Positions 1 through 35,541 of a stretch of DNA of 64,000 nucleotides are shown here, piece after piece (within the stretch, counting starts at the first letter, position 1; every line of letters starts with the position of its first letter). Source of the DNA: an uncultured Bacteroidia bacterium. Its GTDB lineage: Bacteria > UBA4055. Position numbers and translations under genes: made by a program. The notes below the pieces were generated by a model. That model had not been told where the DNA came from, did not search any database, and was given only the letters and a program-made list of their open reading frames with translations. The DNA is taken from the NCBI GenBank assembly GCA_964648295.1, contig CAZYNH010000004.1, forward strand, positions 613 to 64,612. The letters are read 5' to 3'.

Positions 1-923
1 TACTGACATCTCCCTATTGCGACGATATTACAGGCTACGCAGGTCCTTTGAAAGCAGTGTTGATCTCCGGGACGGACGGAAAAATATTGGGTGTGAAGTT
101 ATTATCACACAGAGAAACTCCTTCCTGGATCAGCGGGTTAGAAAGAATAAAATTCTTTGATTCGTGGAACGGGAAGTCAGTTACAGAACTCGCCGATCAC
201 ACCGTAGACGCAGTCTCGGGAGCGACCTATACAAGCAGAGCTGTCGATAAAATTATCAGGAAGCGGGCAGAAATATTTACCGGGAGATCAGAATATGTTA
301 CTTCGGGCCGGAAAACGGAAATCTCTGTATTAAGATCGCCGATTGATGTGGTTCTATATGTTATTTTATCTATTTCCTTGTTAGGAATATTCATAAAAAA
401 AATAAACAAGTACAGGATATTAATACAATTATCGTCTGTTATATTTTTTGGTATCATTTCAGGAAGATTTGTTTCAATATACCTGCTCGAAAGTATTTCG
501 GTTAACGGGATAAAATTATTTACTTCGTGGACAACAATACTCCTGCTTGCTTTCTCGATCCTTATACCGTTTATCTTTAACAGGCATTACTACTGTTATT
601 ATATCTGTCCTTTCGGAGGCGCGCAGACAATTCTTGGAAAACTGCCTGTAAAAAAGATTGTTCCGGGTGCCGGAACTATAAGGTTCTTCAGATTGCTGAG
701 GTTGCTGGTGTTCGTTTCGCTCACGGTACTGATATTACTTAATGTTAAGATCAATCTGACTCTTGTTGAGCCGTTTACTGTTTTCATGTTCTTCTCGGCT
801 TCGGCAATAACAATAACAGGAAGTGCCGTAATATTTATAGCCTCTGTTTTTATTAAAAATCCCTGGTGTATTTACCTCTGCCCCACGGGACAGTTCTTTG
901 ATCTGCTTAAAGACGGTGTGTGA
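1..923 (+). CDS. FMN-binding domain / 4Fe-4S ferredoxin-type polytopic membrane protein (NosR/NirI/NapH-like), 5' partial
   Basis: Frame is open to the window edge. N-terminal FMN_bind-like motif (VDAVSGATYTSRAV), then hydrophobic helices and two Cys motifs (CPFGG, CIYLCPTGQ) typical of membrane-bound ferredoxin-type proteins. Confidence 0.55.
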   Translation, partial: LTSPYCDDITGYAGPLKAVLISGTDGKILGVKLLSHRETPSWISGLERIKFFDSWNGKSVTELADHTVDAVSGATYTSRAVDKIIRKRAEIFTGRSEYVTSGRKTEISVLRSPIDVVLYVILSISLLGIFIKKINKYRILIQLSSVIFFGIISGRFVSIYLLESISVNGIKLFTSWTTILLLAFSILIPFIFNRHYYCYYICPFGGAQTILGKLPVKKIVPGAGTIRFFRLLRLLVFVSLTVLILLNVKINLTLVEPFTVFMFFSASAITITGSAVIFIASVFIKNPWCIYLCPTGQFFDLLKDGV

Positions 924-1011: not shown

Positions 1012-2598
1012 TTGGTAAGTAAAAGTTCCATAAATGTATTGCTTGTTGAGGAGAACGAAGATCATGCAATTTTGATAAGCAACTCATTTTTCAAGTACGG
1101 AGAAAAATATAATTTAATATCAGCCGATTCATTAAAAAAAGCTTTCGAATATTTTGACGATAAAACAGACATAATCGTAACTAATCTTTATCTGCCCGAC
1201 GGCAGCGGTATTGAGTTTCTTAAGAACAAATCTATTTGTGATGATATTCCTGTTATCGTTCTCGAAAGCTATGTGGACCAGGAAACAGTCGTAAAACTGC
1301 TTAAATCGGGAATTTTTGATTATGTGGGTAAATCAGCAGACATATTTGATTCTCTTCCGGAAAAAATTGATAAATATATTCAGTTGAGGGATTTAAAAAG
1401 GGAAAGGAGAAGGATATCCGAGCAGCAGAACATGCTCAGTATAGCTATAAAACACTCGTCAGAGGTTATTCTTGTTACTGACGAAAAAGGTATTATCGAA
1501 TTTGTCAATCCGGCGTTTGAAAAAACCACAGGTTATTCAGCTGATGAAGTAGTTGGTAAATCTCCCTCAATACTCAAAAGCGGCCAGCACGATAAAAATT
1601 TTTATGATGGCCTGTGGAAAACAATAAAATCAGGAAAACCGTGGAAAGGTCATCTGATAAATAAAAGAAAAGACGGATCAATATTTGAAGAGGACGCTTC
1701 CATCTCCCCTGTTTTTGGTGAAAAAGGTGTAATTACTAATTACGTGGCTTTGAAAAGAGATATTTCCGAATTAATAAATATTGAGAATCAACTCAGGCAT
1801 GCGCAAAAAATGGAAGGCATAGGCACTCTTGCCGCAGGGATTGCGCATGAAATCAATACACCGCTGCAATATTTGAATGACAACACTCTATTTATCAAAG
1901 AATCCTTCAAGGCGATGTGCGAGGCAATATCGGAGATAAAGAAGATAGCTGCCGAAAAGGATGCCGATAATATGGGCAGTAAGCTAAACGATATTATCAG
2001 AAAAAATAAGCTGGAGTACCTTGTTGATGAAATTCCTAATGCTCTGGATGAAAATCTGAACGGGATCAAAATAGTTCGTAAAATTGTAACAGCGATGAAG
2101 AATTTCTCCCATCCCGGGTTGAAGACAATGCAGAAAGCTGATATTAACGAAGCGATCAAGTCCACAATAACTATTACAAAAAATGTATGGAAATATAACG
2201 CGGAAATAGTTACCGATCTTATGGATAAACTCCCCGAGGTGAGCTGTCACATTGGAGACATAAACCAGGTATTCTTGAACATGATAACAAATTCCTGTGA
2301 CGCGATAGCTGAAAAAAGTAAAGATGATAAGGGAACAATCCGAATTTCAACATCCTGCGACAACAGTTATGTTTATATTACTATTGAAGACAACGGAAAT
2401 GGAATTCCAAAAGATATCAAAGACAAAATATTCCAACCTTTTTTTACAACAAAACAAGTTGGAAAAGGGACGGGACAGGGCCTTGCTTTAAGTTATGACA
2501 TTATCGTGAATAAACATAACGGGGAGATCAAGGTTGAATCAGAGCCCGGAACAGGAACAAAGTTTACAATTAAATTACCTGTTGAACCTAATGAATAA
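1012..2598 (+). CDS. Hybrid sensor histidine kinase: atypical receiver - PAS - HisKA - HATPase_c
   Basis: Receiver-like N-terminus ([11 protein letters not shown] ... [13 protein letters not shown]), PAS ([21 protein letters not shown]), H-box ([12 protein letters not shown]), ATPase G-boxes ([20 protein letters not shown]). Start is a TTG in the track. Confidence 0.85.
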
Positions 2599-2618
2599 AT
2601 ATTAAAACGGAGATCAAT

Positions 2619-3821
2619 ATGAACAAAAATTTCAGAATTCTGTTTGTTGACGATGAGGCACCGGTTCTTAACGGTATCAGGCGGATATTTCAGGCAAGAA
2701 GAAGCAACTGGGAACTGGTTTTCGCATCAAGCGGGAAAGAAGCAATTCAGAAGGTTTCTGTAATAGATTTCGACCTGATCGTTACAGACGGAAAAATGCC
2801 CGGAATGAGCGGAAGCGAGATGCTTAGAGAAATGAAGGTCCAGGGACTGACAAAAGATATTCCCACAATAATGCTGACGGGTTATGTTGACGACGACATG
2901 AGAAAGGAAGCTCTTGAGTGCGGGATAATCGAATTTGTCAATAAACCCGTTATTCCCGACGAGTTCGTACTCAGAATTGAAAATGTGCTGAACTTCAAAA
3001 TGATGCATGACGAGCTCAAAACTTCGACTGAGCAACTCACCACCGTAAACAGCGAGTTAAACAGGCTCTACGAGATAATAAGTACTCAAAAGAAAGAACT
3101 TGAAGAGCTTAATGAAATGAAAAGTCAATTCATTGAAATCGCGATGAACGAATTCAGAAGCTCAACAAAAGAGATATCTGAATATACTTCAGGATTAAGA
3201 GGATTGATGAACCCTGAAACAGATAAAGAAAAAATTGTGATAACTGAACGAATTATTCAGAGTGTTTCCGAACTGTCCGGAGTATACAGGAAGATCGTTA
3301 ATATTTCAGATATTACAACCGGAACCTTAAAACTTAATTATTCCCGGTCAAATGTTCTTAAATTTTTCAATGAGCTCATTGAGAATTCATCCCATGTCGC
3401 AGAGAAAAAGAATATTAAATTGATTTCTGAGCATGACAATATCCTGCCTGTAGAAAACTATATGGATACGAACAAAATATGGATAGCTGTTTCAAAACTA
3501 CTTGAAAATGCCGTAAAATTCTCCGAAACTACGAATAAAGTAGATTTTGGAATGAAATATTCGGACAATATGCTTAAGTTCATAATAAAGGACTACGGTA
3601 TAGGGATGAATGATGATCAGATGAGGAATCTGTTCTCATTCAACAACAGTGATAATGAAAACAAACAGGGTGTCAGCCTGCCTCTTGTTAAAAAAATTAT
3701 TGACGCTCATAAAGGTAATATATGCGTTGAGAGTAAATTCGGCGGCGGAACAAAATTTACCGTCTCGATACCTGTACTGGAAACAATTCCCGGAGAACTT
3801 GATAATGGGTCCGAATCATAA
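2619..3821 (+). CDS. Receiver domain fused to a histidine-kinase-like module lacking the phospho-acceptor His (putative pseudo-kinase)
   Basis: Canonical REC (ILFVDDE, LIVTDGKMPGMSG, EFVNKP), coiled-coil linker, DHp-like segment with Asn at the His position (FIEIAMNEFRSS), HATPase N-box and G1 present (LLENAVKFS, IKDYGIGM). RBS GGAG before the ATG. Confidence 0.75.
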   Translation: MNKNFRILFVDDEAPVLNGIRRIFQARRSNWELVFASSGKEAIQKVSVIDFDLIVTDGKMPGMSGSEMLREMKVQGLTKDIPTIMLTGYVDDDMRKEALECGIIEFVNKPVIPDEFVLRIENVLNFKMMHDELKTSTEQLTTVNSELNRLYEIISTQKKELEELNEMKSQFIEIAMNEFRSSTKEISEYTSGLRGLMNPETDKEKIVITERIIQSVSELSGVYRKIVNISDITTGTLKLNYSRSNVLKFFNELIENSSHVAEKKNIKLISEHDNILPVENYMDTNKIWIAVSKLLENAVKFSETTNKVDFGMKYSDNMLKFIIKDYGIGMNDDQMRNLFSFNNSDNENKQGVSLPLVKKIIDAHKGNICVESKFGGGTKFTVSIPVLETIPGELDNGSES

Positions 3822-5601
3822 GCTCAATTCTTTCTTCAAGAACTACTTCGTTTATCTCTCGATCTTCACGATTGAGATAATCTGTGTCGTTGCCTATTTT
3901 ACTTATAAAAATATTAACTTGCTCGCCAATTCCGCGCTTGTTGAAAAATACGGCCTTTCTAAGCTTTATGCTGATGACATTGATCAATTTTTGGAGGCTT
4001 ACAAGGCTACCGTAAGTCAATATTATGTAATGGCGGGCATTGTAATAGCATCGGTTGCAGCTTTTGCCGTAATCATTCACTATCTGATGAAAAAAAGGAT
4101 GACCGATGTCGAAAAAATGAACGCTCTTGAAGATCTGACAAGGGATACTTCAAAGATACTCAAGAGCGAGATCAAATACCGTTCTCTTTTTGAGAACAAC
4201 GGTACCGCTATACTCGTAGTCGGTGACGACGAGAATATAAGCGACTGCAATGAGAAATTCAGCGAACTTATAGGTTATTCCAAAGAAGAGATGATCAGAA
4301 ATATGCATTGGAGTAAAATTGTCCATCATGAAGATATCGAAAGGGTCAAAGGTTACGACAAGCTGAGAAGAACGAATCCCGCCAAGGCTCCTGCCGAATA
4401 TATGATGAAACTGAGAAGGAAAGACGGAACATACAGGCAGGTGATAGTCAATGTCATTGTGCTTCAGGGTACAGAGCAGCTAGCTTCCGTAATAGATATA
4501 ACCGATATGATCGAAAAAGACAGAGCTTTAAGGGAAAATCAGGAACTCCTTAATCAGGCACAGGAGATAGCCTCCATGGGCAGCTGGACCTATTATCCCG
4601 AAAACGATGAGCTTAAAGTATCAAAAGAATTCCTGAAAATCCTGGGTATTGACAAGATCACAGAACCCTTAACTCTGACATATCTGAAAAACCGGTTTGG
4701 GTTTGATCAGTTTTATAATGAAGTGTCAGGATTGAATAACTCCGCAGCCGGCTTAGACAAAGAAATTACTTATCTGGATGAAAAATCGCCTCTGTCAGAC
4801 AAAACCAAATATTTTAAGCTCAAAGCCAGAGCAGGATCAACAGCCGAGAAAGAATTGAAAATTACGGGCATAATTTTGGACATTACAGACAGAAAAAAGA
4901 TCGAAAATGAGATAAATAGGGCAAACGAGGAAATGAAAAACCTTATTTATGTTACAACTCATGATCTGCAGATACCGCTTATCTCAATAGAGGGCTTCTC
5001 TAATCTTCTTTTAAGATCATGCCAGAATATTGAGATCACTCAGGAAGCAAAAGATTACCTTGAAAGAATAAAATCGAATGTTAAAACTATGAGTTCGATG
5101 TTTAAGAATTTCTTTGACATCTCAAAGATTACCGCGATAAAGAATCCTTTTGAATACATAAAAACTTCCGATCTTATTAACCAGGTGGCAAGTGAGATGC
5201 GGATACTGACAGACAAATACGGATCTTCAGTTAAAATTGACTGCGGCAATCTCTTACCCGATATATATGGGGACAGAGAAAATCTTAGGCTCGTTTTTTA
5301 CCATTTGGTTTCTAACGGCATTATTTACGGCGGCAAAACCGTGACTGCCGGTTATGAAAAAAGTAAAGGGTTCTTTATAAAAGACGACGGCACCGGAATA
5401 TGTACAGATGATCTGGAGAGAATTTTCCTGCCCGGAATAAAACTTGAAAAAGAAGAGAATTATGAGGGCTCCGGCATGGGCTTGACTATATGCAGAAAAG
5501 TTATTGAGCTGCACAACGGAAAAATATGGGCTGAATCTGATGGAAAAGGCAAAGGAACAACAATTTTCTTCACACTTAGTAATGAACTAATCAGGGATTA
5601 A
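3805..5601 (+). CDS. Membrane-anchored PAS sensor histidine kinase
   Basis: Start refined from track ORF 3649 to the ATG at 3805 (MGPNHK), 17 nt overlap with the upstream stop. N-terminal TM helices, two PAS-like regions, H-box (THDLQIPL), HATPase (IKDDGTGI, GSGMGLTICRKV). Confidence 0.8.
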   Translation: MGPNHKLNSFFKNYFVYLSIFTIEIICVVAYFTYKNINLLANSALVEKYGLSKLYADDIDQFLEAYKATVSQYYVMAGIVIASVAAFAVIIHYLMKKRMTDVEKMNALEDLTRDTSKILKSEIKYRSLFENNGTAILVVGDDENISDCNEKFSELIGYSKEEMIRNMHWSKIVHHEDIERVKGYDKLRRTNPAKAPAEYMMKLRRKDGTYRQVIVNVIVLQGTEQLASVIDITDMIEKDRALRENQELLNQAQEIASMGSWTYYPENDELKVSKEFLKILGIDKITEPLTLTYLKNRFGFDQFYNEVSGLNNSAAGLDKEITYLDEKSPLSDKTKYFKLKARAGSTAEKELKITGIILDITDRKKIENEINRANEEMKNLIYVTTHDLQIPLISIEGFSNLLLRSCQNIEITQEAKDYLERIKSNVKTMSSMFKNFFDISKITAIKNPFEYIKTSDLINQVASEMRILTDKYGSSVKIDCGNLLPDIYGDRENLRLVFYHLVSNGIIYGGKTVTAGYEKSKGFFIKDDGTGICTDDLERIFLPGIKLEKEENYEGSGMGLTICRKVIELHNGKIWAESDGKGKGTTIFFTLSNELIRD

Positions 5602-5607
5602 TGTAAA

Positions 5608-7476
5608 ATGGCCATGAATTTATTTAGAATAAAAGAATTCCCGTCTGAAAAATCTTATCAGGATGCGGAGCTTCACTTATCAAAACAGGGTAAAAACTTT
5701 GTATTCATATGTAAACTGGAAGGAAAATATTTTGCGCAGTCTGACGATAATATATACGGAGCTTTTGACTCGGTAGAAAATGTAACATTTAGAAAAGAAG
5801 GAAAAATATTCGCCTTCAAGTCTTCAACTTTTTCAAAAAAATTAGGGGTTATAAAAGACGAAAATCAGGACTCTTTATACATTAACAATAAAATATTGGG
5901 CCCGTTCACAAAAATAAGGGATTTCAAAATAAACGACAATCTAACATATTACATATGGTATGAAACCTTCGGGAATTCGTATGTTATTATCAACAATAAC
6001 AAATTGGGAAGCTTTAAAAGCGTATATCAGGTAACTATGGCTCAGGACGGAACATCGTATGCTTTGATATACAAAGACGGCGGAAAAAAATATTTGCGAA
6101 TTAATGATGAAATATTTGGAGGATACGAAGAAATATTCGACTTTGTCTGCGATTATGAAAAAGGTTTTACCGGTTTTGTTTTCAAAAATTTATCAGGCGA
6201 GTATTACGCAAGAATTAATAACACGGAGATAGGTCCGTTCGGGAGTTGTACGGGTCTCAATTATTTTGCGGACATAAATAAATATCAGATTGAATACAAA
6301 AAAGACGCCGCAAATTTCATACAGATCAACGAAAGTGTTTTCTCGGGATCGGATACATATCAGGTAGAATTGATAAACGAATCTCTGGCTGTAATTAAAT
6401 GCTTCAAAGACAAATTGAGTTCTTATAATATCGTTGCCTGGGAGATCGGTTCTTTTAACGATGTTATTGAGTATCGGATAAGTAATTCAGGAAAGAAATT
6501 CATCTTTGTGTATGTAAAATTCAACCAGTATTTTGTTGTAGCCGGTGATTACGAATATGGCCCGTACAAAAAAGTCTCAAACTTATCAATAAGCCCGAAC
6601 GGAGAGAATTATTCATTTATTTTTACAAATCAGCATTACAATTATTATGCCAATATAAACGGGAATACTTACGGACCTTACATCTTAATAAACGAGACAG
6701 CTGTATCTGATTCACCCTCCGCCTTCGGATTTATTTTCCAGAGAAACTCTAAGTATTTTGTTAACATTTCCGACACGATACACGGAATGTATGATTCTGC
6801 TTTAAATTTAAAACTGTCACCCGACGGTTCCCTTTATTCATACATGTTCACTAAAAAAATAAAAATAAATCAGCTTTATTCAAAGCTGCAAAGTTATTTG
6901 TCACTTAATGGTGAAGTATCTGAAAATGACATAGCTATAATAGATCTTCAGAGAAACTCAATGCAAATAGAAGCAATCGTATTTAAAAAGAACTCAAAAT
7001 GGTATATCAGCCTTAACGAGACTATGTTCGGCCCTTATGACCATATAGCTGACTGGAGATTTTTAACCGACGAAACGCTTTTTTCATTCAGGTTCAAAAA
7101 CCTGCAATCTGATTTCTACAATCTTCAAATAAACGGCAGAACATATTATTCCCGAAACAAAAATCTGCAGGTACATTCACCCGTATTCAGCCGGGACGGA
7201 ACAAAATTTGCCTTTATTCATTATTCCGACATCCATTATTACATACAAATATGCGATCAAACCTACGGCCCTTTTGATCATGCCGACCTGCCGACTTTCT
7301 CACCGGACAGTAAAATGGCAGTATTCAGGTACATTGAGTCAAAAAAGACATATTTAAACATAAACGGCATGAAGACCGGACCTTTCGGAGTGGCTGAATA
7401 CACATTCTCTGACGGAAAGCTTTATACATGTTATCTTCAGGACAAGACGATCATAATTGACGAGATCACATGGTAA
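5608..7476 (+). CDS. Hypothetical protein with about 13-14 degenerate tandem repeats of ~37 aa (possible beta-propeller-like fold)
   Basis: Repeat consensus roughly YY-x-IN-x3-YGPY/F ... SPDG-x-Y-F, PD40-like but no confident family match. No signal peptide or TM helix. Last gene of the plus-strand kinase operon. Confidence 0.5.
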   Translation: MAMNLFRIKEFPSEKSYQDAELHLSKQGKNFVFICKLEGKYFAQSDDNIYGAFDSVENVTFRKEGKIFAFKSSTFSKKLGVIKDENQDSLYINNKILGPFTKIRDFKINDNLTYYIWYETFGNSYVIINNNKLGSFKSVYQVTMAQDGTSYALIYKDGGKKYLRINDEIFGGYEEIFDFVCDYEKGFTGFVFKNLSGEYYARINNTEIGPFGSCTGLNYFADINKYQIEYKKDAANFIQINESVFSGSDTYQVELINESLAVIKCFKDKLSSYNIVAWEIGSFNDVIEYRISNSGKKFIFVYVKFNQYFVVAGDYEYGPYKKVSNLSISPNGENYSFIFTNQHYNYYANINGNTYGPYILINETAVSDSPSAFGFIFQRNSKYFVNISDTIHGMYDSALNLKLSPDGSLYSYMFTKKIKINQLYSKLQSYLSLNGEVSENDIAIIDLQRNSMQIEAIVFKKNSKWYISLNETMFGPYDHIADWRFLTDETLFSFRFKNLQSDFYNLQINGRTYYSRNKNLQVHSPVFSRDGTKFAFIHYSDIHYYIQICDQTYGPFDHADLPTFSPDSKMAVFRYIESKKTYLNINGMKTGPFGVAEYTFSDGKLYTCYLQDKTIIIDEITW

Positions 7477-9780
7477 TCAGTTTTTGAGTATTTCTTTTAC
7501 GTTTTCGACTAAAGACTGTCTTGAAAAAGGTTTCTGTAAATAGATCTTATTTTTATCCAGCAGACTGAAATCCATTATAGTGCTTTCTGTATAGCCGGAC
7601 ATATATATGACCTTTGCCTCAGGGTACTTTTCGAGCAGCTTCTCACCTATCTCATCACCATTCATATCCGGCATGATAACATCCGTTATCAACAGATCAA
7701 TTTTTTCGGTTTCGTAAAATTTCATAATATCTTCAAAAGATGAGGCGCAAAAAACATTAAATCCTTCCTGCTCAAGCATTTTAGCCACTACATCCCTTAT
7801 TTCTTTCTCATCATCGATCACTACGATTTTTTCACCGTGCGGCTCTACATTCTCATACTGTTTGATCTCTTTCTCTATATATTCTTCAGCATCTGCTGAC
7901 GGAAGGTATATTTTGAAACAAGTCCCTCTACCGGGTTCGCTGTAACAGGACACATATCCGTTGCTCTGTTTCACTATCCCGTAAACCGTTGAAAGACCCA
8001 GTCCTGTACCCTTTCCCAAGCCTTTTGTGGTAAAAAACGGCTCAAATATTTTGTCCACTGTTTCTTTTGTCATTCCTGTACCGGTGTCAGTTACGGCAAT
8101 CATCGCATAACTTCCGGGTTTAAGTTCAGAGTATTTTTTTATATAATTATCATCTATCTTTACATTCTTAGTCTCTATCGTTATCTTCCCGCCTTTGGGC
8201 ATGGCGTCCCTTGCGTTGATCACCAGATTCATTATCACCTGATCCATCTGTCCTTTATCAGCCTTCACCGGACTGATCCGCGGTTCAAGAACAGCTACCG
8301 TGTCAATTCTCTCTCCGACCAGTCTTTTTATCATTTTCTCAAGATCGTTGACTATTGTATTCAGATCTATTATCTGAGGTTTCAGAACCTGTTTCCGGCT
8401 GAATGCGAGAAGCTGACTTGTCAGTTCGGCTGCCCGCTGCCCGCTTTTTTTTATCTCGATGATATCTTCCGTAAGAGTGTCATCATTCTTCGATCTTGCA
8501 AGTATTAAATCGCAGTTGCAGAGAACCACCATAAGCAGATTGTTAAAATCGTGAGCTATTCCGCCGGCCAAAAGACCAATCGCTTCCATTTTCTGAGATT
8601 GCCTGAACTGTTCCTCAAGCTCTTTCTGTTCAGTGACATCATGTACTATTCCAAGCATTTTTGCGGTCTTTCCGTACCTGTTCTTCTCGAATTGTGCTTT
8701 TACATGAATTTTCCTTAAAGAACCGTCCTTTCTTTTAATCGAATGAATTTTTTCAAAAGGCTTACACTCGTTTATTGCCCTTGTAAATTCGGCGTTGATT
8801 TCATCTCTTTCATCTTCCGGAATGAAACTCATATACAACTTATAGTCCGGTTTTGTTGAAGATTGATCTAATCCAAAAATTCTGTATACTTCATCAGTCC
8901 AGGTAAAATCCATTGTTTTACTGTCAAAGATCCAACTGCCGACATGCACAATTTCCTGTGTTCTTCTAAGCAGAGCTTCATTAGATTTTAATTTATTTTC
9001 AGCTTTGATCTTCATTGTCATATCCAGCCCCACACAGAGTAATCCCGAAATGTCAAAATATTCGTTCTTAATCTGCGACACATGCCATTCGACAAATAGA
9101 CTTCCCCCCTCTTTCTTTGTTATTCTTGTTACACAACTCGAATCGATTTCAGTTGTTAGGCACTTGGTAAAAAAATCGGCGGCTGATTTTTGATAATTAA
9201 GGGACACATAATTTTTTATAAGACTTTTATTCCTTGCTTCTTCCACTCTGTAGCCGGTTATATCTCTGAAAAACTCATTTACATTCACAATGTTGAATTT
9301 CCCGTCGATCACCATTATAATAGCTTTTGCAGTGTTTATTATGTTATCTGACAGCTGTTTTTGTGAGATCAGATTGTCAAGCGCTTTTTTTCTTTCGATA
9401 GAATGCCTTATAGCTCTTATTAGTGCGTCTTTATCAAATTTCCCTTTAATAAGATAATCCTGAGCCCCAATACTAAGCACTTTCTTTATTATCCTTATAT
9501 CGTCACTTCCTGTTAAGGCAATGACCGGTAAAGTGGGATTCTCGTTAATTATCATCATGGGAGCTTCAGCTCCCACGCACCCGGGCAGCCCGAGATCGAC
9601 AAGGGCAATATCATAGCGCATGAACTCAAAATCTTCCAGAGCACTGTCAATATCTTTAAAATGACTTATCTCAGCGTCCGCGTAATCGAGCATTTCTTCT
9701 ATCAGTACCGCGTCTCCGTCATTGTCTTCGACAATAGCGATCTTAAGATTTTTATCCATTTTTACATCTCCGTTCATCAT
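7477..9780 (-). CDS. Hybrid sensor histidine kinase: REC - PAS x2 - HisKA - HATPase_c - REC
   Basis: N-terminal REC (KIAIVEDNDGD, ALVDLGLPG), PAS regions, H-box (IAHDFNNLL), HATPase (VTDTGTGM, GLGKGTGLGLS), C-terminal REC (KIVVIDDE, LLITDVIMPDMNG). True start may be the internal Met at about 9759. Confidence 0.85.
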   Translation of the reverse strand: MMNGDVKMDKNLKIAIVEDNDGDAVLIEEMLDYADAEISHFKDIDSALEDFEFMRYDIALVDLGLPGCVGAEAPMMIINENPTLPVIALTGSDDIRIIKKVLSIGAQDYLIKGKFDKDALIRAIRHSIERKKALDNLISQKQLSDNIINTAKAIIMVIDGKFNIVNVNEFFRDITGYRVEEARNKSLIKNYVSLNYQKSAADFFTKCLTTEIDSSCVTRITKKEGGSLFVEWHVSQIKNEYFDISGLLCVGLDMTMKIKAENKLKSNEALLRRTQEIVHVGSWIFDSKTMDFTWTDEVYRIFGLDQSSTKPDYKLYMSFIPEDERDEINAEFTRAINECKPFEKIHSIKRKDGSLRKIHVKAQFEKNRYGKTAKMLGIVHDVTEQKELEEQFRQSQKMEAIGLLAGGIAHDFNNLLMVVLCNCDLILARSKNDDTLTEDIIEIKKSGQRAAELTSQLLAFSRKQVLKPQIIDLNTIVNDLEKMIKRLVGERIDTVAVLEPRISPVKADKGQMDQVIMNLVINARDAMPKGGKITIETKNVKIDDNYIKKYSELKPGSYAMIAVTDTGTGMTKETVDKIFEPFFTTKGLGKGTGLGLSTVYGIVKQSNGYVSCYSEPGRGTCFKIYLPSADAEEYIEKEIKQYENVEPHGEKIVVIDDEKEIRDVVAKMLEQEGFNVFCASSFEDIMKFYETEKIDLLITDVIMPDMNGDEIGEKLLEKYPEAKVIYMSGYTESTIMDFSLLDKNKIYLQKPFSRQSLVENVKEILKN

Positions 9781-10189
9781 TTTTTTTCATAAATTCGTCG
9801 ATACTCTTAAAAACATCGAAAAAATCGCCGAGATCCATAGGTTTTGTAATATATTCGCTTGCCTTGTACCTGTAACAGCTGTTGATATCGCTCTCGCTGT
9901 TCGAAGTGGAAAAAACTATTACGGGTAATGATTCCGTCTTGGGTTCATTTTTTAGAATCTGAAGAATCTCAAGCCCGGTCATGCCAGGCAGGTTCAGATC
10001 CAGAAGTATCACATCCGGTCTCGGGTTCTTTTCCTCATACAGATATTCGAGAGCCTGATCGCCGTTGTATAGGTGGACAATACGGGATTCAGAACCGTTA
10101 TGAGCAAGAGCTTCCCGCGCCAGCACGGCATCACCCTCGTTATCCTCCACGAGCAGGATCAGATATTTTTTGGTTCTACACATTTTCAT
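9752..10189 (-). CDS. Single-domain response regulator (CheY/Rcp1-like receiver)
   Basis: LILLVEDNEGD, DVILLDLNLPGMTG, VIVFSTSN, YITKP. No output domain. Confidence 0.85.
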   Translation of the reverse strand: MKMCRTKKYLILLVEDNEGDAVLAREALAHNGSESRIVHLYNGDQALEYLYEEKNPRPDVILLDLNLPGMTGLEILQILKNEPKTESLPVIVFSTSNSESDINSCYRYKASEYITKPMDLGDFFDVFKSIDEFMKKNDERRCKNG

Positions 10190-11786
10190 CCCACCTATTG
10201 AGCGTAAAAATGAACCTTGTGCTTTTTCCTTTTTCGGACTCGGCCCGGATCATTCCGCCGTGCCTTTCAATTATCTTTTTTACGATCGCAAGGCCTATAC
10301 CCGTTCCCGGGTATTTGTCCTGCGAATGAAGCCTGTGAAATATTCGGAAAATATTTCCTGTATGTCTCAAGTCCATCCCGATTCCGTTATCTTCAACGGT
10401 TATTCTGACTTTTCCCTGAATTTCCGCCTCCTCAGCTTTTATATGAATTTCAGGAACTAATTCGGTCTTTCTAAATTTTATCGCATTTCCTAAAAGATTC
10501 TGAAACACGGAAATGATCTGCGATCTGTCACCGAGAACAACGGGAAGGCTGTCATAGCTGATCATCGCCCCGGTTTCGACAACAGACGATGATAGGTTTT
10601 TTAAAGCTTCCTTTACCGCTTCGTTCAGATCCACATTACCGAAAGGATCGCGCTGCGTGGTCACCCTCGAATAAGCCAGCAAACCCTGTATCTGGGCCTG
10701 CATTCTCTTGGCTCCGTCAACAGAATAGTTTATGTATGTTTTAGCCTCATCATTCAAAACAGATCCATATTTTTTAATAAGAAGGTCGCTGAATCCCGAC
10801 ACCATTCTCAAAGGCTCCTGAAGATCGTGCGAGACTGTATAGGCGAAGTCTTGAAGCTCCCTGTTGGAATTTTCGAGCTTTTTTTCGTACTCCTTAATTT
10901 CTGTTATATCTACAATCGCGCCTATCAGGCCCGTAATATTTTCCAGATGGTCAACAAGAGCGGCTTTGTGAAATACTACATTCCTGATTCCTCCGGACTT
11001 ATTAGCAAACTTCCACTCGTAGATCTGCGTTCCGCCTTTTTCAAAAAGTTCTTTGTCCATTTCATCGTATTTGAGAGCGATCTCTTCAGGGGCTATATCG
11101 TAAACGGTTTTTCCTATGATCTGATCTTCTTTCATTCCCAGCATTCTTGCGAATTCGCTGTTACAGCCCAGATACATTCCTTTTGAATCTTTATAGAATA
11201 TCGGAAGGGGTGCGTTGTTCAAAAGCGTTCTGAACAGCTCTCTGCTTTCCTCAAGCTTTATCCTGGCATCAACAAGTTCCGTTACATCTCTGAATACCCC
11301 GTAGCTGGAAACGAATTTACCGTCATCGTCGTAATTCGGACTTACTGTAACTTCAATAATTTTGGTATTTCCTTTGTTCGTTACTATCTTAAGTTCATAT
11401 TTTTCAGAAAAACCTTTTTTTCGATTTTCAGTACCTTTTTTGATCTTTTGCATTTCTTCCGAGTTGAGGAATTCGGATAAATTTTTCCCTATCAGATTTC
11501 TGCTTTCGCATTCGAATATGATCTCGGCCGCATTGTTCGCATATAAGAAAAATTCGTTCTCGTCTACAATGCCTATACCGTCTCCTACGGTTTCAACGAG
11601 CTTGTGATATTTTCTCTCTTTTTCGATCAGCTCTTTTTCTGCCGATATTCTTCTTTCAAGCTCCACCCTGTATGCCTTATTTTTCCTGATCAGATCCCTT
11701 CTGACGGACAGAAGCCAGATAAGAGACAGTACAAGTATAAGTGAAAGAAACATTTCTAAAAAAATGTGATCAGGGAAAATCGTCAT
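10176..11786 (-). CDS. Membrane-anchored PAS sensor histidine kinase
   Basis: N-terminal TM helix, two PAS regions, HisKA (YTVSHDLQEPLRMV), HATPase (VEDNGIGM, GTGIGLAIVKKI). 4-nt overlap with the upstream gene. Confidence 0.85.
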   Translation of the reverse strand: MTIFPDHIFLEMFLSLILVLSLIWLLSVRRDLIRKNKAYRVELERRISAEKELIEKERKYHKLVETVGDGIGIVDENEFFLYANNAAEIIFECESRNLIGKNLSEFLNSEEMQKIKKGTENRKKGFSEKYELKIVTNKGNTKIIEVTVSPNYDDDGKFVSSYGVFRDVTELVDARIKLEESRELFRTLLNNAPLPIFYKDSKGMYLGCNSEFARMLGMKEDQIIGKTVYDIAPEEIALKYDEMDKELFEKGGTQIYEWKFANKSGGIRNVVFHKAALVDHLENITGLIGAIVDITEIKEYEKKLENSNRELQDFAYTVSHDLQEPLRMVSGFSDLLIKKYGSVLNDEAKTYINYSVDGAKRMQAQIQGLLAYSRVTTQRDPFGNVDLNEAVKEALKNLSSSVVETGAMISYDSLPVVLGDRSQIISVFQNLLGNAIKFRKTELVPEIHIKAEEAEIQGKVRITVEDNGIGMDLRHTGNIFRIFHRLHSQDKYPGTGIGLAIVKKIIERHGGMIRAESEKGKSTRFIFTLNRWDENV

Positions 11787-13288
11787 ATATTTTTATCCTT
11801 CGCCGAATTTGGAATGCTGAATTTTAAAACAGCGCCTTTATTTTTGCCGTCCGATTCTGCCCATATCCTTCCGCCCTGTCTTTCGATTATTCTTTTACAA
11901 AGAGCGAGACCGATCCCGTCCCCGGGTTTATCAGCGGCTTCCGAGAGCCTTTTGAATATAACGAATACCTTTTCAATATCCTCCTCTTTGATCCCGATAC
12001 CGTTATCCTTTACATATATTATCACTTCATCACCCTGCGAATTTTTCAAGTCCGATCCTATCTCAATTAAACATTTTTCATCTTCTTTCCTGAATTTTAT
12101 CGCGTTCCCTATCAGGTTTTGAAAAACATGCGTGATCTGATCCGGTTCTACCATTACATCAGGAAGGTCTTTGTATCTGATCTCAGTCCCTGTTTCCTGA
12201 ATTGTCAAGTTGAGATTATAAACAGCATTCTTCAGAGGTATAGACAGATTGATCAGAGTCTTTTCTTTCTTTCTCGAACCGATCCTTGAGTATTCGAGAA
12301 GTCCTCTGACGAGATTCTGCATCCTTCTCGTGTTGGTTACAATATAATCAAGGTAACCCTTAGCTTCATCATTCAGCCTATGGGTATGTTTAAGTTCGAG
12401 AAGCTGCGAAAAACTCGATATGATCCTTAACGGTTCCTGAAGGTCATGCGATGCAATAAAAGCGAACTGCTCAAGCTCTTTGTTGGATGCCTCAAGTGCT
12501 TCCTTTTCCTTTATAAGTTCCTTCAGGAGCTGTTTTTTATCGGTTATGTCCTGCGACAGCTTTAAAAAATTCGTTATGTTTCCTTTATCGTCAAATATCG
12601 GTCCGACTGTTGCTCCTTCCCAGTAAAGTTCTCCGCTTTTCTTTCTGTTCCTGAACTCCCCTTTCCATATATTTCCGGATTTTATTACATCCCACAATTC
12701 TTTATACTCATTTTCGCTCATTTCTCCGGACTTCAGAATTTTGGGATTTTTGTAAATAACCTCTTTAAAAGTATAACCTGTAACCTGAGTAAAGCGCGGA
12801 TTCACATATTCGACATTTCCATTTGTATCGGTCATTAAGATAATGGACGGGCTCTGGTTGACCGCGGCAGTCAGTTTTAAAAGTTCCGAATGTTCTTTCG
12901 ACGCTTTTTTTCTATTCTCGTATTCTTTGATCTCTCTTTCTATCGTCGGCACAAGTTTCCTCAGCTTGTCTTTCATTATGAAATCATTTGCGTCGTTGCG
13001 CATGAGATCAACGGCTTTTTCTTCTCCTATAGTGCCTGAAACAAGTATAAAAGGTATCTCAGTATCTTTTTCCCGTAAAATCAAGAGAGCTTCCTCTCCG
13101 TTAATGTCGGGCAGATTAAAATCTGAAAGGACTATATCGGGTTGTTTTTCATTCAAAAATTTCCTGAATTCTTCTTTATTCTTACAAATAGAGATTTCTT
13201 TTTCAGTCTTGAGCTTTTTTAACTCATACAGCACAAGATCAAGGTCGCTCTCGTTGTCTTCAAGTATTAGTATGCGTATCTTATCCAT
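11783..13288 (-). CDS. Hybrid histidine kinase: REC - PAS - HisKA - HATPase_c
   Basis: REC (IRILILEDNESD, IVLSDFNLPDING), PAS (YVNPRFTQVTGYTFKEV), HisKA (IASHDLQEPLR), HATPase (VKDNGIGI, GDGIGLALCKRI). Confidence 0.85.
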   Translation of the reverse strand: MDKIRILILEDNESDLDLVLYELKKLKTEKEISICKNKEEFRKFLNEKQPDIVLSDFNLPDINGEEALLILREKDTEIPFILVSGTIGEEKAVDLMRNDANDFIMKDKLRKLVPTIEREIKEYENRKKASKEHSELLKLTAAVNQSPSIILMTDTNGNVEYVNPRFTQVTGYTFKEVIYKNPKILKSGEMSENEYKELWDVIKSGNIWKGEFRNRKKSGELYWEGATVGPIFDDKGNITNFLKLSQDITDKKQLLKELIKEKEALEASNKELEQFAFIASHDLQEPLRIISSFSQLLELKHTHRLNDEAKGYLDYIVTNTRRMQNLVRGLLEYSRIGSRKKEKTLINLSIPLKNAVYNLNLTIQETGTEIRYKDLPDVMVEPDQITHVFQNLIGNAIKFRKEDEKCLIEIGSDLKNSQGDEVIIYVKDNGIGIKEEDIEKVFVIFKRLSEAADKPGDGIGLALCKRIIERQGGRIWAESDGKNKGAVLKFSIPNSAKDKNI

Positions 13289-13296
13289 GAAATTCC

Positions 13297-13746
13297 TTAT
13301 TTCTGCACAGTTTTGTTCAGAACCATCCAGTAATAGCCGATTTCTTTTATCGAATTACTGAACTTGCTAAAATCAATAGGCTTGACAATGTAGCTGTTCA
13401 CTCCGAGTTCATAAGCACTAACGATATCTTTTTCCTCATTCGATGAAGTAAGCACGACCACAGGGATTTTTTTCGTCCGTTCATCTTTCCTGACGGCTCT
13501 TAAAACCTCTATCCCGTCAACTTTCGGCATTTTCAGATCAAGCAGGATGACTTTCGGCGGGCATTCGATATCCCTGCCTTCATATCTGCCTGTTCCAAAA
13601 ATGAACTCCAAAGCTTCCTCGCCGTCTTTTACCCTTAAAAGGTCATTGGCGAGTTTATGTTTCTTCAGCTCTCTTATAGCCAGTTCGGCCTCGTCATCAT
13701 TATCCTCGACCATCAGTACCATCACCTGCTTATACCCGTTCTTCAA
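13297..13746 (-). CDS. Single-domain response regulator (CheY/Rcp1-like receiver)
   Basis: VLMVEDNDDE, VILLDLKMPKVDG, VVVLTSSNEE, YIVKP. Confidence 0.85.
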   Translation of the reverse strand: MKNGYKQVMVLMVEDNDDEAELAIRELKKHKLANDLLRVKDGEEALEFIFGTGRYEGRDIECPPKVILLDLKMPKVDGIEVLRAVRKDERTKKIPVVVLTSSNEEKDIVSAYELGVNSYIVKPIDFSKFSNSIKEIGYYWMVLNKTVQK

Positions 13747-16733
13747 CTTTCACCTCCGTTTTTTTCCTCAAATGGAATTTTTATATAGAAAGTTGCCCCG
13801 TTACCGTTCTTACTTTCTGCGTCCAAGCTCCACCCGTGCTTTGCGGCCACTTTTGCCACTATTGACATTCCGACGCCCGTTCCGGGAAATTCCTCCGCGG
13901 TGTGGAGCCGTTGGAAAACTTCGAATATCTTGTGCTTATATTTCTCATCGAAACCGGCCCCGTTATCTTTTATCGATATAATATGAAATTTTCCGTCATT
14001 TTCATAATTAATTCTGATCCCGGCAACATCTTTTTTATTCGTAAATTTAACGGCATTTCCGATGATATTCTGGAACATCTGCATTACAAGCGTACGATCT
14101 GCCTGGATATCAGGGATTTTTTCATTAACCGAAAAATCGAATTTCCTGTCCTTTTCTCCGTCCGTTACCTCCTCAAATATCTTTTTAAGAAGACTGACCG
14201 TATTGATCTTCTGCGGTTTTATAGTGCTTCTCCCCACTCTCGAATACTCGAGCAGGTCGTCAATAAGCCTCTGCATTTTAGATGTATTATCCACTATCTT
14301 CTGCATATATCTCTTGCCCTCGTCGTCAAGGTCTTTGCAGTAATCATCTTTAAGAATATTAGCGAAACCGAGAATTGCCCGTAAAGGCGCTCTTAGGTCG
14401 TGAGATACAGAGTAGCTGAAGGCCTCAAGTTCTTTGTTCGCGGCGGTCAGCTTGGCATTGATTTTCTCAAGTTCGCTTCTCGCTTCATTAACATCTTCGA
14501 GTAGTATAACCAGAGATTCCTGAGCTGAAGTAAGTTCCCTGTTCTGCTTTTCGAGCCTTGCTGTCCTTTCCCTGACTTTTTCTTCCAGTTCGGCATTAAG
14601 CTTTTTTAATTCTTCCTGCGCATTTTTTCTCTCTTTAATTTCACTATTTACATCTTTAAGGATATTGAGCATTGCTGCTTTATTTTTTTCAAGTTCTTTA
14701 AGATAAGCATCAATCCTTAATTCATCTTTCTTCCTTTCTGAAATATCTGAAAAAATTGTGATAGTTCTTTCATCTCCGTTAGAGTCCAGATAAATATTTG
14801 ATGTGAGCATGAGCGGGATTTTACCTCCGCTTTTTCCTAATGCGTTTATTTCACCTCTAAAAGATCCTTTTTTACTTCTGATCTCGAGTGATTCAATGAA
14901 AGCAGGGTCTTTTATGTCAAACAGCTTGTCTCTTCCAAGTTCAGTAATCTCCTTCTCAGACCTTCCGAGAATCCTGCAGGCTTCAGGATTCGCACTCAGG
15001 ATCGTCCCGTCAGGCCTGGTCATAAATATACCTTCGCTTGCCGAATCGAACACCTGACGGTATTTTTCCTCGCTTTCCTTTAGAAGAATATTCTTCTGTT
15101 TGAGTTCTGTTTCGTTTAAGATCAACAGCTCTTCGGCTATTCTCCTTGTCTCGATCTCCTCTCTCAGTTCTTTTGTTTTCTTAGTGACCTGATCATTTAA
15201 TGACCTGTTCCAGAAAACGAAAATAGCAATAACAACAATTGCCGGTATCAAAAAGAAAAGTAAATACTTTATGATCTCCTTTAGGCTCAAAGGTTTTTCA
15301 GGTCCGTAGGTTCCGAACCATTTTATATGTATATTCCTTATTTCTCCGGATGTTTTAAGATTGTTGATGGCGTTGTTTATATTGCTTAAGAGCACACTAT
15401 TGCCCTTTTTCACGGCATAGCAGAATTCAGCGCTGTGTATATTTTCCCCGCCGTAAACAATACCGGGAAGTTCCTTTTTATTGATTACATACATAGCAGT
15501 TAGGTACGAAAGCAGGGCATACTCAGCATCACCGGATATAAGCATCATAAGAGCTTCTTCATGCGAACCGGCAATTTTCAGATTTTCACCTAACCCTGCA
15601 AGAACAGCCTTTTCGTGCATAATGTCGCTGTTTTCAACGGCGGTATATTTATCTTTCAGATCATTTATTGAACGGGGTATCGTCGTTCCTTTTTTAGCGA
15701 AGATCTTGTATGAAGAAACTGCGAAAGGAACGGAAAAATCCATGTATTCCGCTCTTATATCTGAGTATAAGATCCCATGTATCGCGTCATATTCACCCCG
15801 TCTGAAATTTTCCATCAGTCCTGACCACTTTTCGAGCCTGAGATCAAGAAGCAATCCAAGCTCTTTTGCCATAGCCCGCGATATATCAACATCAGGACCG
15901 GAGGCATTTCCTTTTTCATCAATAAAACTGTACGGATGGTAATTGGAGTCACCGGCAATGATTATCGTCTGTTTTCCGATCTCGAATGAAGGAGTGAACC
16001 ATTTTTCATGGAGTTTATCGTATGTGCCGTTTAAAATAACAATCGAAAGTCCTTCATTTATTTCTTCGAGAAGTCGTTTATCACCTTTTCTTACAGCAAA
16101 GCAGAATTTCTGTTGGAAGTCGTCTATACTTATATCTAGCGGTTCAATATTTTTGATGCCCAGATCATTTATCATACTCAAGCCCATTACTTTCTGGGTA
16201 ACGACTATATCGCATCCGCCTTCGGAAAGTAAACGGAAGGCATCTTCAAATTTTGAAACTGTGATAATACTGTCGGACAGCTTTACCCTTCGCGCAAACT
16301 CCTCGGCATTATCGCCTTTCATCACGGCGAGGACAGCTTTTTTTAAGCCATCTCTATTTTTGAACCCGGTCCCGTCACTCCTCGCAAAGACAGCTCCGTG
16401 ATAGATCATATAAGGAAATGTAAAATCGTAAAAAGGTTCTCTTTCCGGTGTTCTGCCGACGAGAGGGAGCACATCAAGTTTACCGTCAGCAAGCTCCTGT
16501 TTAATAATATTCCACTCGTCCACTTTAAAAGTAATTTCATGCTTCGCAGCTTCGCAGGTCGCCTTAAGCAGTTCAACAGAAAACCCGCCGGCCGTTCCGT
16601 CCGGATTTATTATACAAAAAGGCGGATAGTCATACTCGGAAGCTGATCTTAAAATCTCTGATCCCGCTTTCTGACCGAACAGTGCCGAGATCAGCACGAT
16701 TAGGTATAAAAAAGATCCGTATTTCCTGCGCAT
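13743..16733 (-). CDS. Sensor histidine kinase with two periplasmic solute-binding (SBP family 3-like) domains, TM helix, PAS, coiled coil, HisKA, HATPase_c
   Basis: Signal peptide; duplicated SBP_bac_3-like segments (EYDYPPFCIINPDGTAGGFSVEL and GDSNYHPYSFIDEKGNASGPDVDI); TM helix; PAS; HisKA (YSVSHDLRAPLR); HATPase (IKDNGAGF, GTGVGMSIVAKV). Confidence 0.85.
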   Translation of the reverse strand: MRRKYGSFLYLIVLISALFGQKAGSEILRSASEYDYPPFCIINPDGTAGGFSVELLKATCEAAKHEITFKVDEWNIIKQELADGKLDVLPLVGRTPEREPFYDFTFPYMIYHGAVFARSDGTGFKNRDGLKKAVLAVMKGDNAEEFARRVKLSDSIITVSKFEDAFRLLSEGGCDIVVTQKVMGLSMINDLGIKNIEPLDISIDDFQQKFCFAVRKGDKRLLEEINEGLSIVILNGTYDKLHEKWFTPSFEIGKQTIIIAGDSNYHPYSFIDEKGNASGPDVDISRAMAKELGLLLDLRLEKWSGLMENFRRGEYDAIHGILYSDIRAEYMDFSVPFAVSSYKIFAKKGTTIPRSINDLKDKYTAVENSDIMHEKAVLAGLGENLKIAGSHEEALMMLISGDAEYALLSYLTAMYVINKKELPGIVYGGENIHSAEFCYAVKKGNSVLLSNINNAINNLKTSGEIRNIHIKWFGTYGPEKPLSLKEIIKYLLFFLIPAIVVIAIFVFWNRSLNDQVTKKTKELREEIETRRIAEELLILNETELKQKNILLKESEEKYRQVFDSASEGIFMTRPDGTILSANPEACRILGRSEKEITELGRDKLFDIKDPAFIESLEIRSKKGSFRGEINALGKSGGKIPLMLTSNIYLDSNGDERTITIFSDISERKKDELRIDAYLKELEKNKAAMLNILKDVNSEIKERKNAQEELKKLNAELEEKVRERTARLEKQNRELTSAQESLVILLEDVNEARSELEKINAKLTAANKELEAFSYSVSHDLRAPLRAILGFANILKDDYCKDLDDEGKRYMQKIVDNTSKMQRLIDDLLEYSRVGRSTIKPQKINTVSLLKKIFEEVTDGEKDRKFDFSVNEKIPDIQADRTLVMQMFQNIIGNAVKFTNKKDVAGIRINYENDGKFHIISIKDNGAGFDEKYKHKIFEVFQRLHTAEEFPGTGVGMSIVAKVAAKHGWSLDAESKNGNGATFYIKIPFEEKNGGES

Positions 16734-16745
16734 CAGCGCACCTCT

Positions 16746-18284: not shown

Positions 18285-18323
18285 TTGTTATATCTCGCTT
18301 AGCTTTATTTCCTGCATTAAGAA

Positions 18324-20195: not shown

Positions 20196-20199
20196 TTGA

Positions 20200-20643: not shown

Positions 20644-20644
20644 T

Positions 20645-23221: not shown

Positions 23222-23231
23222 CGATACTCCT

Positions 23232-33893: not shown

Positions 33894-33905
33894 AAGGAGG
33901 GATTT

Positions 33906-35501: not shown

Positions 35502-35510
35502 GGGAATAGA

Positions 35511-35541
35511 AAAGGGCTGACATAACGTCAGCCCTTTTTTT
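35511..35541. terminator. Bidirectional rho-independent terminator between convergent genes
   Basis: aaaGGGCTGACataaCGTCAGCCCttttttt: GC-rich hairpin followed by a T-run, with an A-rich stretch on the other side. Confidence 0.7.

Follow-up and report, generated by a model that had tools for sequence, protein, structure and literature searches.

Histidine pseudokinases are few, and those that have been described (DivL, RocA, PsmA and, in part, RetS) were mostly studied singly. Here we analyse a gene for a 400-amino-acid kinase-like protein located at positions 2619..3821 of a 64,000-nucleotide stretch of DNA from an uncultured bacterium (contig CAZYNH010000004.1, GenBank assembly GCA_964648295.1; this whole stretch is called the window below). 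The protein carries Asn where the phospho-acceptor His of histidine kinases is expected, and so does nearly its whole orthologous family. Its architecture is that of a receiver-controlled histidine kinase (Rec-HK) of the LvrB type, while the missing His makes it a histidine pseudokinase of the DivL, PsmA and RocA kind. It may bind a partner receiver, or dephosphorylate it, under the control of phosphorylation.

LvrB of pathogenic Leptospira, a member of the Rec-HKs or 'hybrid response regulators' (8vc9; PMC13269768, PMC5863495), has the same order of receiver (REC), signalling helix, DHp and CA domains within 377-400 amino acids, and its gene, too, comes right after a kinase gene of the same operon; the intact receiver residues and a long helical linker of conserved length are further likenesses. 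However, LvrB has its acceptor, His161, and phosphorylation of its receiver leads it to autophosphorylate, whereas the window protein has Asn and no His there, and the two proteins are only ~16-18% identical. LvrA is a PAS-DHp-CA-REC-DHp-CA protein, whereas the kinase upstream of the window protein is REC-PAS-DHp-CA, so only the operon logic is analogous. A literature search returned no description of a natural His-to-Asn Rec-HK, and the available portion of the LvrB report (PMC13269768) makes no mention of His-less members.

Among the natural pseudokinases, DivL of Caulobacter crescentus (PMC4211667; structural match 4q20) is likewise a His-less DHp-CA protein of the HisKA type, conserved in its lineage and placed in a multikinase network, but it is membrane-anchored, has multiple PAS domains and no receiver, and carries Tyr at the His position, whereas the window protein is soluble and has an N-terminal receiver input. 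PsmA, a hybrid histidine pseudokinase of Streptomyces (PMC12963549), shares with it the conserved kinase-like and receiver domains and the absence of the H-box His. In PsmA, however, the His position holds E, D, Q, V or Y, the D/ExxT/N motif has given way to XSLRGP, residues for ATP binding are absent and PsmA can do without its receiver Asp, while in the window family Asn is near-fixed, the motif and the N and G1 boxes are kept, the receiver site is invariant and the receiver comes first, the reverse of the order in PsmA.

RetS of Pseudomonas aeruginosa (PMC5992135; 6dk7/6dk8), which is also a structural match and does not autophosphorylate, attenuates another kinase by phosphate siphoning, as a transmitter phosphatase (HExxT) and by binding. 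These three activities, all shown experimentally for RetS, are the roles considered here, and they correspond to the phosphatase, scaffold and phosphate sink that an initial annotation of the gene, made from its letters, had put forward. RetS differs in that it keeps its His, has a degenerate HATPase, C-terminal receivers and a periplasmic sensor, whereas the window protein has lost the His and kept N and G1. The H139N form of NtrB (NRII) has the identical His-to-Asn change in a HisKA-type H-box, but it is a laboratory mutant, regulated by PII, without a receiver and with the Pro five positions after the His (H+5) retained. HK853 of Thermotoga maritima (2c2a, 3dge) is the closest solved sequence relative of the DHp-CA core, but it lacks a receiver, its H-box residues are His260, Thr264 and Pro265, its G2 box is canonical and its ATP lid is longer.

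Asn in the phospho-acceptor column

The gene and its parts are placed in the window as follows.

2619..3821 (+): His-less Rec-DHp-CA gene, 400 amino acids, ATG start, stop included, based on the list of open reading frames and on 29 orthologues
2619..2993 (+): receiver (REC), residues 1-125, with catalytic D11, D12, D57, T87 and K109
2787..2789 (+): Asp57 codon, predicted receiver phospho-acceptor, an invariant column that aligns with the receiver Asp of canonical Rec-HKs
2955..3098 (+): signalling helix (receiver alpha5 and coiled-coil linker), residues 113-160, running on into DHp helix 1
3099..3317 (+): DHp helical hairpin, residues 161-233, with alpha1 to 196, a loop and alpha2 at 203-233 in the AlphaFold (AF2) model
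3129..3164 (+): degenerate H-box F-I-E-I-A-M-N-E-F-R-S-S, residues 171-182, based on column counts and alignments
3147..3149 (+): Asn177 codon AAC in the phospho-acceptor His column, based on alignments and codon comparison
3342..3776 (+): CA (HATPase_c) domain, residues 242-386, based on Pfam and the alpha/beta sandwich of the AF2 model
3504..3524 (+): N box E-N-A-V-K-F-S, residues 296-302, with the Mg/ATP-binding Asn297 and Lys300, invariant
3591..3605 (+): G1 box D-Y-G-I-G, residues 325-329, with the adenine-binding Asp325; D, G and G invariant
3669..3683 (+): remodelled G2 box G-V-S-L-P, residues 351-355, for the canonical G-x-G-L-G-L, with a shortened acidic ATP lid (343-349) before it

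The initial annotation had read AMNEFRSS by eye as an H-box with Asn in place of the phospho-acceptor His. Of the profile check that it had proposed, HATPase_c gave a match, but Pfam HisKA (PF00512) found nothing in the 400-amino-acid protein even at E<=1, although most neighbouring kinases do match, and the His column therefore had to be fixed by other alignments. AMNEFRSS is residues 175-182, and three independent alignments agree in placing its Asn177 in the His column. A phmmer search against PDB sequences placed residues 156-385 on Thermotoga HK853 with no gap across the H-box, where 'mksqfieiamNefrss' of the window protein is paired with 'mktefianisHelrtp'. A custom DHp-CA hidden Markov model (HMM) run over all window kinases showed His in every one that aligned through the H-box (SHDLRAPL, SHDLQEPL, THDLQIPL and AHDFNNLL) and Asn only here; the H-boxes of the neighbours quoted in the initial annotation are real, as seen in the translations and in this alignment, and the one of the upstream kinase, IAHEINTPL, was taken straight from its translation rather than from the custom HMM. 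Finally, hhalign aligned a 26-member family profile with 23 canonical Rec-HKs over 375 columns (probability 100%, E=8.7e-72) and set 'IAMNdFrNs' on 'iaAHDLRnP', in which His is an invariant column, and the same family profile matched HK853 over positions 159-387 (E=1.5e-30).

A search space of 5.8 billion proteins gave an orthologous group of 29 members (P0001-P0029) with 48-100% identity, and every named member belongs to Candidatus Delongbacteria (UBP11). None of the 29 has a precomputed PF00512 match. The His column of this group holds Asn in 27 members, Thr in one, Asp in one and His in none, while His is present in 7/7 outgroups. The H-box His in DHp helix 1 by which a functional HisKA kinase is recognised is therefore absent in 29/29, and a kinase-homologous DHp-CA core that lacks the acceptor His across its orthologous group is what is understood as a pseudokinase. 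At codon 177, AAC is found in four independent assemblies and GAC in a fifth, from a distant clade.

These counts bear directly on the possibility that the Asn is an artefact (a CAC-to-AAC error), that the gene is a decaying Rec-HK pseudogene, or that it codes for an ordinary kinase using another His. It is true that Asn and His codons are one base apart and that His130 is present in 24/29 orthologues; however, the codon is AAC or GAC in separate assemblies, there is not a single His among the orthologues, and the reading frame is intact with strong conservation throughout. We regard this explanation as having almost no probability, and sequencing error and pseudogene were both rejected from the orthologue column counts, the codon comparison and the conservation.

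We also looked for a His that could substitute for the missing one. In the DHp domain (residues 161-233), His occurs at most twice per column in the 29 members, and a substitute acceptor was not found there. The well-conserved His residues of the protein are H130 (24/29), H272 and H364. The first was rejected as an alternative acceptor since it is a linker-helix residue that precedes the H-box position by 47 residues (~70 A of helix), and is replaced by N, Y or K in 5/29; the last two were rejected because both are in the CA domain. None of the phmmer, custom HMM and hhalign alignments, which were examined for an acceptor His elsewhere in the DHp domain, placed one there. With Asn177 at the His column and no other conserved DHp His to take its place, autophosphorylation at the canonical site is predicted not to be possible in this protein, and the inability to autophosphorylate that had been proposed for it appears sound. 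The receiver-triggered autophosphorylation of an H-box His that is typical of Rec-HKs would likewise be missing, since the residue that it needs is absent.

Loss of the His is uncommon in the surroundings of the family. Among the 149 nearest non-family representatives, His is present in 267/278 DHp-CA domains, and the rest include 2 with Gln, 7 gapped and 1 with a register slip beside a real His. Because His is kept in these relatives and absent from the family, its loss is rare among relatives (~1%) and is a fixed trait of the clade. Two of the nearest relatives, P0147 and P0238, are large proteins with multiple kinase domains that show separate natural His-to-Gln losses (SQELRTPL and TQEIRTPLN) in otherwise canonical H-boxes, and are independent pseudokinase domains.

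Domain architecture

The ATG at 2619 is preceded by GGAG, which resembles a ribosome-binding site, 7 nt upstream. Pfam Response_reg matches residues 7-120 of the protein (E=2e-22) and HATPase_c matches residues 284-386 (E=1.3e-16). In the AlphaFold model, which has a mean predicted local distance difference test (pLDDT) of 83, residues 1-112 form the receiver and a single unbroken helix at 113-196 comprises receiver alpha5, the coiled-coil linker and DHp alpha1; the DHp helix, for which such a model had been suggested, is in this model a part of the longer helix. The CA alpha/beta domain covers 242-385, and disorder in it is confined to the ATP-lid loop at 343-349.

A Foldseek search with the model gave Leptospira LvrB (8vc9, Rec-DHp-CA) as the top full-length PDB match, followed by HK853, ZraS, GacS, RetS and DivL; WalK is also among the matches. 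For the DHp hairpin itself, Foldseek and HMM matches are HK853, LvrB, GacS, RetS and DivL. A DHp hairpin and a Bergerat-fold CA domain are thus present according to the AF2 model, Foldseek and the HK853 profile match. Full-length kinase models of NCBIfam align across residues ~131-388, and therefore a DHp-like segment is present. The protein contains an N-terminal REC, a helical linker, DHp and CA in one soluble polypeptide, which is the Rec-HK architecture, and its receiver has the full catalytic set (DD, D, T/S, K). It does not belong to the LvrA or LvrB families as defined in NCBIfam, since with the LvrA model it reaches 128.6 bits, far short of the 1200 required (family cut-offs 500-1200).

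Conservation of the family

Beyond P0029 the identity falls steeply to canonical REC-HisKA-HATPase proteins that are ~25% identical. An exhaustive HMMER (phmmer) scan of 1.84 billion representatives with the DHp-CA part recovered the family (E=5e-65) and then canonical kinases from E=5e-36, and no wider His-less clade was found in these representatives by that scan. When related loci were searched with an alignment of the family only, full-length matches were found solely in Delongbacteria/UBP11 loci, and the matches in Spirochaetaceae, Sulfuritalea and others comprised the receiver and linker only.

Of the relatives that do have the His, the one nearest to the receiver-linker module is P0030, a protein of 262 amino acids on a 1.4-kb metagenomic contig, in which a receiver 49% identical to that of the family is followed by a His-containing DHp (ANHELNQPL) and no CA domain. 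P0030 may be a REC-DHp phosphotransferase or the product of a truncated gene.

Over 26 full-length orthologues the mean column identity is 74%. The spacing between K109 and N177 is exactly 68 residues in 26/26, and this length falls in the commonest heptad phase of the canonical Rec-HKs that were sampled, by what is a rough measure. The receiver is the best-conserved region, with a mean column conservation of 0.88 vs 0.68-0.75 elsewhere, and D11, D12, D57, T87 and K109 are kept in 28/28 orthologues, in agreement with the intact receiver of the initial annotation. This pattern of conservation indicates that the 400-amino-acid protein is under strong purifying selection along its whole length.

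A receiver conserved above the rest of the protein could mean that the protein is a pure phosphate sink, modelled on mechanism 1 of RetS or on single-domain sink receivers, in which the receiver would drain phosphoryl groups from the upstream or another kinase and DHp-CA would serve only dimerisation or stability. The invariance of all receiver catalytic residues is consistent with such a role, as is the fact that the gene adjoins a kinase in every locus examined. However, a receiver alone would suffice for this purpose, and three stand-alone receivers are already present in the gene cluster around it. In addition, the exposed residues of the H-box, the N, G1 and G2 motifs and the exact linker length are kept over 49-70% identity, which argues that the DHp-CA core has a function of its own. 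We therefore consider a pure sink improbable.

H-box motif and nucleotide pocket

Across the 29 members the H-box retains everything but the His and the following Pro. F171, E173, A175, M176 and F179 are invariant; H+1 is D or E in 29/29 (Glu in the window copy) and H+3 is R or K in 29/29. The H+4 residue, which is the N/T position of the HisKA phosphatase motif D/E-x-x-N/T, is N in 26 members, T in two and S in one, and Pro at H+5 has been lost in 29/29, with S, T or A instead. The window copy reads N-E-F-R-S where the HisKA transmitter-phosphatase motif is expected and lacks the H+5 Pro. Its Ser181 (codon 3159..3161) is the sole Ser at H+4 in the family, and the window copy may therefore differ from its orthologues in phosphatase competence.

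The ATP-binding boxes had been described as intact. This holds for the N box, in which E296, N297, A298, K300 and S302 are invariant, and for the G1 box, in which D325, G327, I328 and G329 are invariant, but not for the G2 box and the lid, whose remodelling, like the loss of the H+5 Pro, was absent from the initial annotation. The G2 box is G-V/I-S-L-P in the family (KQGVSLP in the window copy vs GTGLGL), with G351, S353, L354 and P355 invariant; the F-box Tyr and Arg are absent, and the ATP lid is acidic and shorter by ~4-6 residues. The invariant residues of N and G1, together with those of the altered G2, imply selection on the nucleotide pocket.

Such selection would be expected of a trans-acting or split kinase, whose CA domain would have kept ATP binding and would transfer phosphate to the His of a second protein, so that the Asn abolishes self-phosphorylation only. 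The protein would then be a receiver-gated kinase subunit that forms heterodimers, for example with one of the neighbouring kinases or with a REC-DHp protein which, like P0030, lacks a CA domain, and it would represent a split, phosphorylation-licensed histidine kinase. A protein with the REC-DHp layout of P0030 does exist elsewhere, and Asn297, Lys300, Asp325, Gly327 and Gly329 are kept without exception. On the other hand, the protein has lost the usual contacts to the ATP phosphates, which are the G2 glycines and the F-box Tyr and Arg, and its lid is shortened. Neither a DHp-only nor a CA-less kinase was found in the cluster of the window, where the PAS-only open reading frames are merely PAS arrays, and a comparison of DHp alpha1 and alpha2 among all window kinases for signs of a shared partner or heterodimer showed no informative similarity, the DHp sequences of the neighbours being dissimilar. 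Moreover, nucleotide binding is equally well explained by a cofactor or structural role in a phosphatase state. In EnvZ and NtrB the nucleotide acts as a cofactor or structural element of that state. We consider a trans-acting kinase very unlikely.

A proposed receiver-gated phosphatase or receiver-docking protein

Among phosphatase, scaffold and phosphate sink, the evidence tilts to phosphatase or receiver binding. The reading that we favour, tentatively and with slightly less than even confidence, is that the protein is a kinase-dead, receiver-controlled HisKA protein and probably a phosphorylation-gated phosphatase or binder of a partner receiver. The upstream REC-PAS kinase would phosphorylate Asp57 of the intact receiver, as LvrA does LvrB, and this phosphorylation would be relayed via the length-invariant signalling helix to the DHp/CA core (cf. 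the LvrB structures). The output would then be not autophosphorylation, but a change in how well a partner receiver docks to the H-box surface that is kept (D/E at +1, R/K at +3 and N/T/S at +4, the HisKA transmitter-phosphatase motif), most probably leading to its dephosphorylation. The partner would be a stand-alone REC or a hybrid-kinase receiver of the same cluster, and the protein could serve as a phosphorylation-gated negative branch, feed-forward or feedback, in the multikinase network.

Several previous studies make such a mechanism plausible. In CrdS and HK853 it is only the phosphatase reaction that needs the Asn or Thr at H+4, and CrdS and EnvZ remain largely able to act as phosphatases without the His (PMC3510030). 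RetS, which is unable to autophosphorylate, dephosphorylates the GacS receiver via HExxT as a transmitter phosphatase (PMC5992135), and NtrB H139N has been described as a phosphatase only (10.1101/122606). In LvrB, phosphorylation of the receiver controls the DHp/CA core, induces formation of the coiled coil and frees a CA domain, and the symmetric state was proposed to be the phosphatase state (PMC13269768). In PsmA, a pseudokinase of the scaffold type, the D/ExxT/N motif is lost, the His position varies freely and the receiver Asp is not needed (PMC12963549).

Other observations weigh against this reading. In CrdS the P376A change, at the H+5 position whose Pro is missing from the window family, cut phosphatase activity strongly. 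In PleC the H610A mutant was devoid of both kinase and phosphatase activity, which shows that some HisKA proteins cannot do without the His (PMC3510030). The Ser at H+4 of the window copy is a substitution outside those tested in the cited work. DivL has a near-canonical H-box and yet acts by binding, and a kept motif is therefore no proof of catalysis. A phosphatase-only role would not obviously need a strictly conserved nucleotide pocket, because the HATPase of RetS is degenerate (PMC5992135). Furthermore, no target receiver can be assigned and the cluster has no output domain. Both the phosphatase activity and the partner are matters of prediction.

The same points lead to the question of whether the protein acts through binding only, as a non-catalytic regulator like DivL or like RetS in its mechanism 3. 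Its DHp-CA core would bind a phospho-receiver or the DHp of another kinase, and so switch or block allosterically a partner kinase such as the adjacent PAS-kinase or the convergent hybrid kinase, with Asp57 phosphorylation setting the competence to bind and without phosphatase chemistry. There are precedents for this, since the output domain of DivL, with Tyr for His, senses phospho-DivK and controls CckA (PMC4211667, PMC5361649), and RetS blocks GacS autophosphorylation through direct interaction (PMC5992135); DivL and RetS are both among the structural matches of the window protein. The gene sits among no fewer than 8 kinases, the next kinase gene begins before its stop is reached, and a conserved beta-propeller neighbour that resembles a scaffold could assemble a complex. 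The loss of the H+5 Pro, a residue that matters for the CrdS phosphatase (PMC3510030), also suits a binding-only role. However, the N/T/S residue at H+4, which is needed specifically for phosphatase chemistry, is kept in 29/29, DHp alpha1 of the neighbouring kinases has no special similarity that would suggest heterodimerisation, and the invariant nucleotide pocket is left unexplained. We regard a binding-only regulator as possible, but rather unlikely.

If the protein is instead a receiver-gated phosphatase, it would be the natural counterpart, under receiver control, of the engineered phosphatase-only NtrB H139N used as a tool in synthetic circuits, and it would provide a test bed for the LvrB-based idea that Rec-HKs split kinase and phosphatase activity into two conformational states. 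The family is a clean natural case of a pseudokinase: it has a true receiver input and a coupling helix of invariant length, keeps the phosphatase motif and the greater part of the nucleotide pocket, and is altered only at the His, at the adjoining Pro and in the G2/lid region. The novelty lies in the joint occurrence of receiver input, near-fixed Asn, kept motif and N and G1 boxes, and a remodelled but invariant G2 box within one candidate phylum, and for specialists in two-component systems it is a neat natural experiment more than a surprise. Public annotation of these proteins as 'hybrid sensor histidine kinase/response regulator' or 'signal transduction histidine kinase' implies a phosphorelay step that is predicted not to occur, and the wiring of a very dense multikinase cluster would be misread as a result. 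The hosts are metagenome-assembled genomes of uncultured Candidatus Delongbacteria, which is a practical limit.

Genomic neighbourhood

The genes that accompany the His-less protein are the following.

1012..2598 (+): REC-PAS-histidine kinase (H-box IAHEINTPL), candidate kinase for Asp57, stop 20 nt before the gene, domains from Pfam
3805..5601 (+): membrane PAS-histidine kinase (H-box THDLQIPL), start overlapping the stop of the gene by 17 nt
5608..7476 (+): 622-amino-acid tandem beta-propeller-like protein, a conserved neighbour limited to the same lineage (Candidatus Delongbacteria)
7477..9780 (-): convergent hybrid kinase REC-PAS-PAS-HisKA-HATPase-REC, a conserved cluster member with a possible target receiver
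9752..10189 (-): stand-alone receiver, 145 amino acids, a conserved cluster member and possible target

The same REC-PAS kinase is located immediately upstream in 6/6 loci examined, in both clades, with 55-69% identity. In L001/L002 and L005 the order is REC-PAS-kinase, His-less protein, PAS-kinase, 622-amino-acid protein, convergent hybrid kinase and stand-alone receiver, and L006, a 5.5-kb contig, has the first four genes of this order and then ends. The distant clade, represented by L003, in which the His-less protein has 52% identity, has the REC-PAS-kinase directly upstream (57% identity) and, downstream, a relative of the 622-amino-acid protein (35%), a stand-alone receiver and relatives of the PAS-kinase. 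The DHp of the upstream kinase at 1012..2598 is scarcely recognised by Pfam HisKA (E=0.069) despite a clear NtrB/AtoS-like H-box, and its top NCBIfam matches, T2SS_HK and EspC, are both below the cut-off. For the downstream PAS-kinase, the ATG at 3805 is most likely the start, and its N-terminus is conserved from residue 1 in the orthologous loci L005 and L006.

The 622-amino-acid protein is always found on the same contigs as the gene of the His-less kinase and beside it, and belongs to no Pfam family. Its model (pLDDT 89) is all-beta and resembles a tandem propeller, with repeated 'IN..x.GPF/Y' motifs, and the NCBIfam TmcD_fam match is weak and below threshold (56 bits vs a cut-off of 440). 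It was rejected as an output enzyme, since the model has no catalytic match and resembles scaffolds only generically; judging from that model, it may be a scaffold of the multikinase cluster.

The region 1012..25088 is an exceptionally dense two-component cluster on both strands, with at least 8 kinases, 3 stand-alone receivers and 2 PAS-only proteins, and a domain scan of it found no DNA-binding or enzymatic output domain. The stand-alone receivers are all on the minus strand (9752..10189, 13297..13746 and 20200..20643), and two of the kinases are fused to periplasmic solute-binding domains, SBP_bac_3 and NMT1. At 18324..20195 (-) a 5TMR-LYT membrane sensor with three PAS domains has no transmitter domain, and it is followed at 16746..18284 (-) by a PAS-only protein of 512 amino acids whose first ~230 residues are without any match; these two proteins, neither with a visible output, possibly form a split system.

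Directly upstream of the kinase operon, at 48..923 (+), a membrane protein with FMN_bind and Fer4_5 domains (NosR/NapH-like) is encoded, and this gene is kept in the close clade (64% identity in L005, and a 384-amino-acid call in L001) but not in the distant one. Further along the window, the G+C content swings within 32001..38000 from 0.51 (32001..34000) to 0.36 (36001..38000), around a window average of ~0.42, which may reflect rRNA or foreign DNA.

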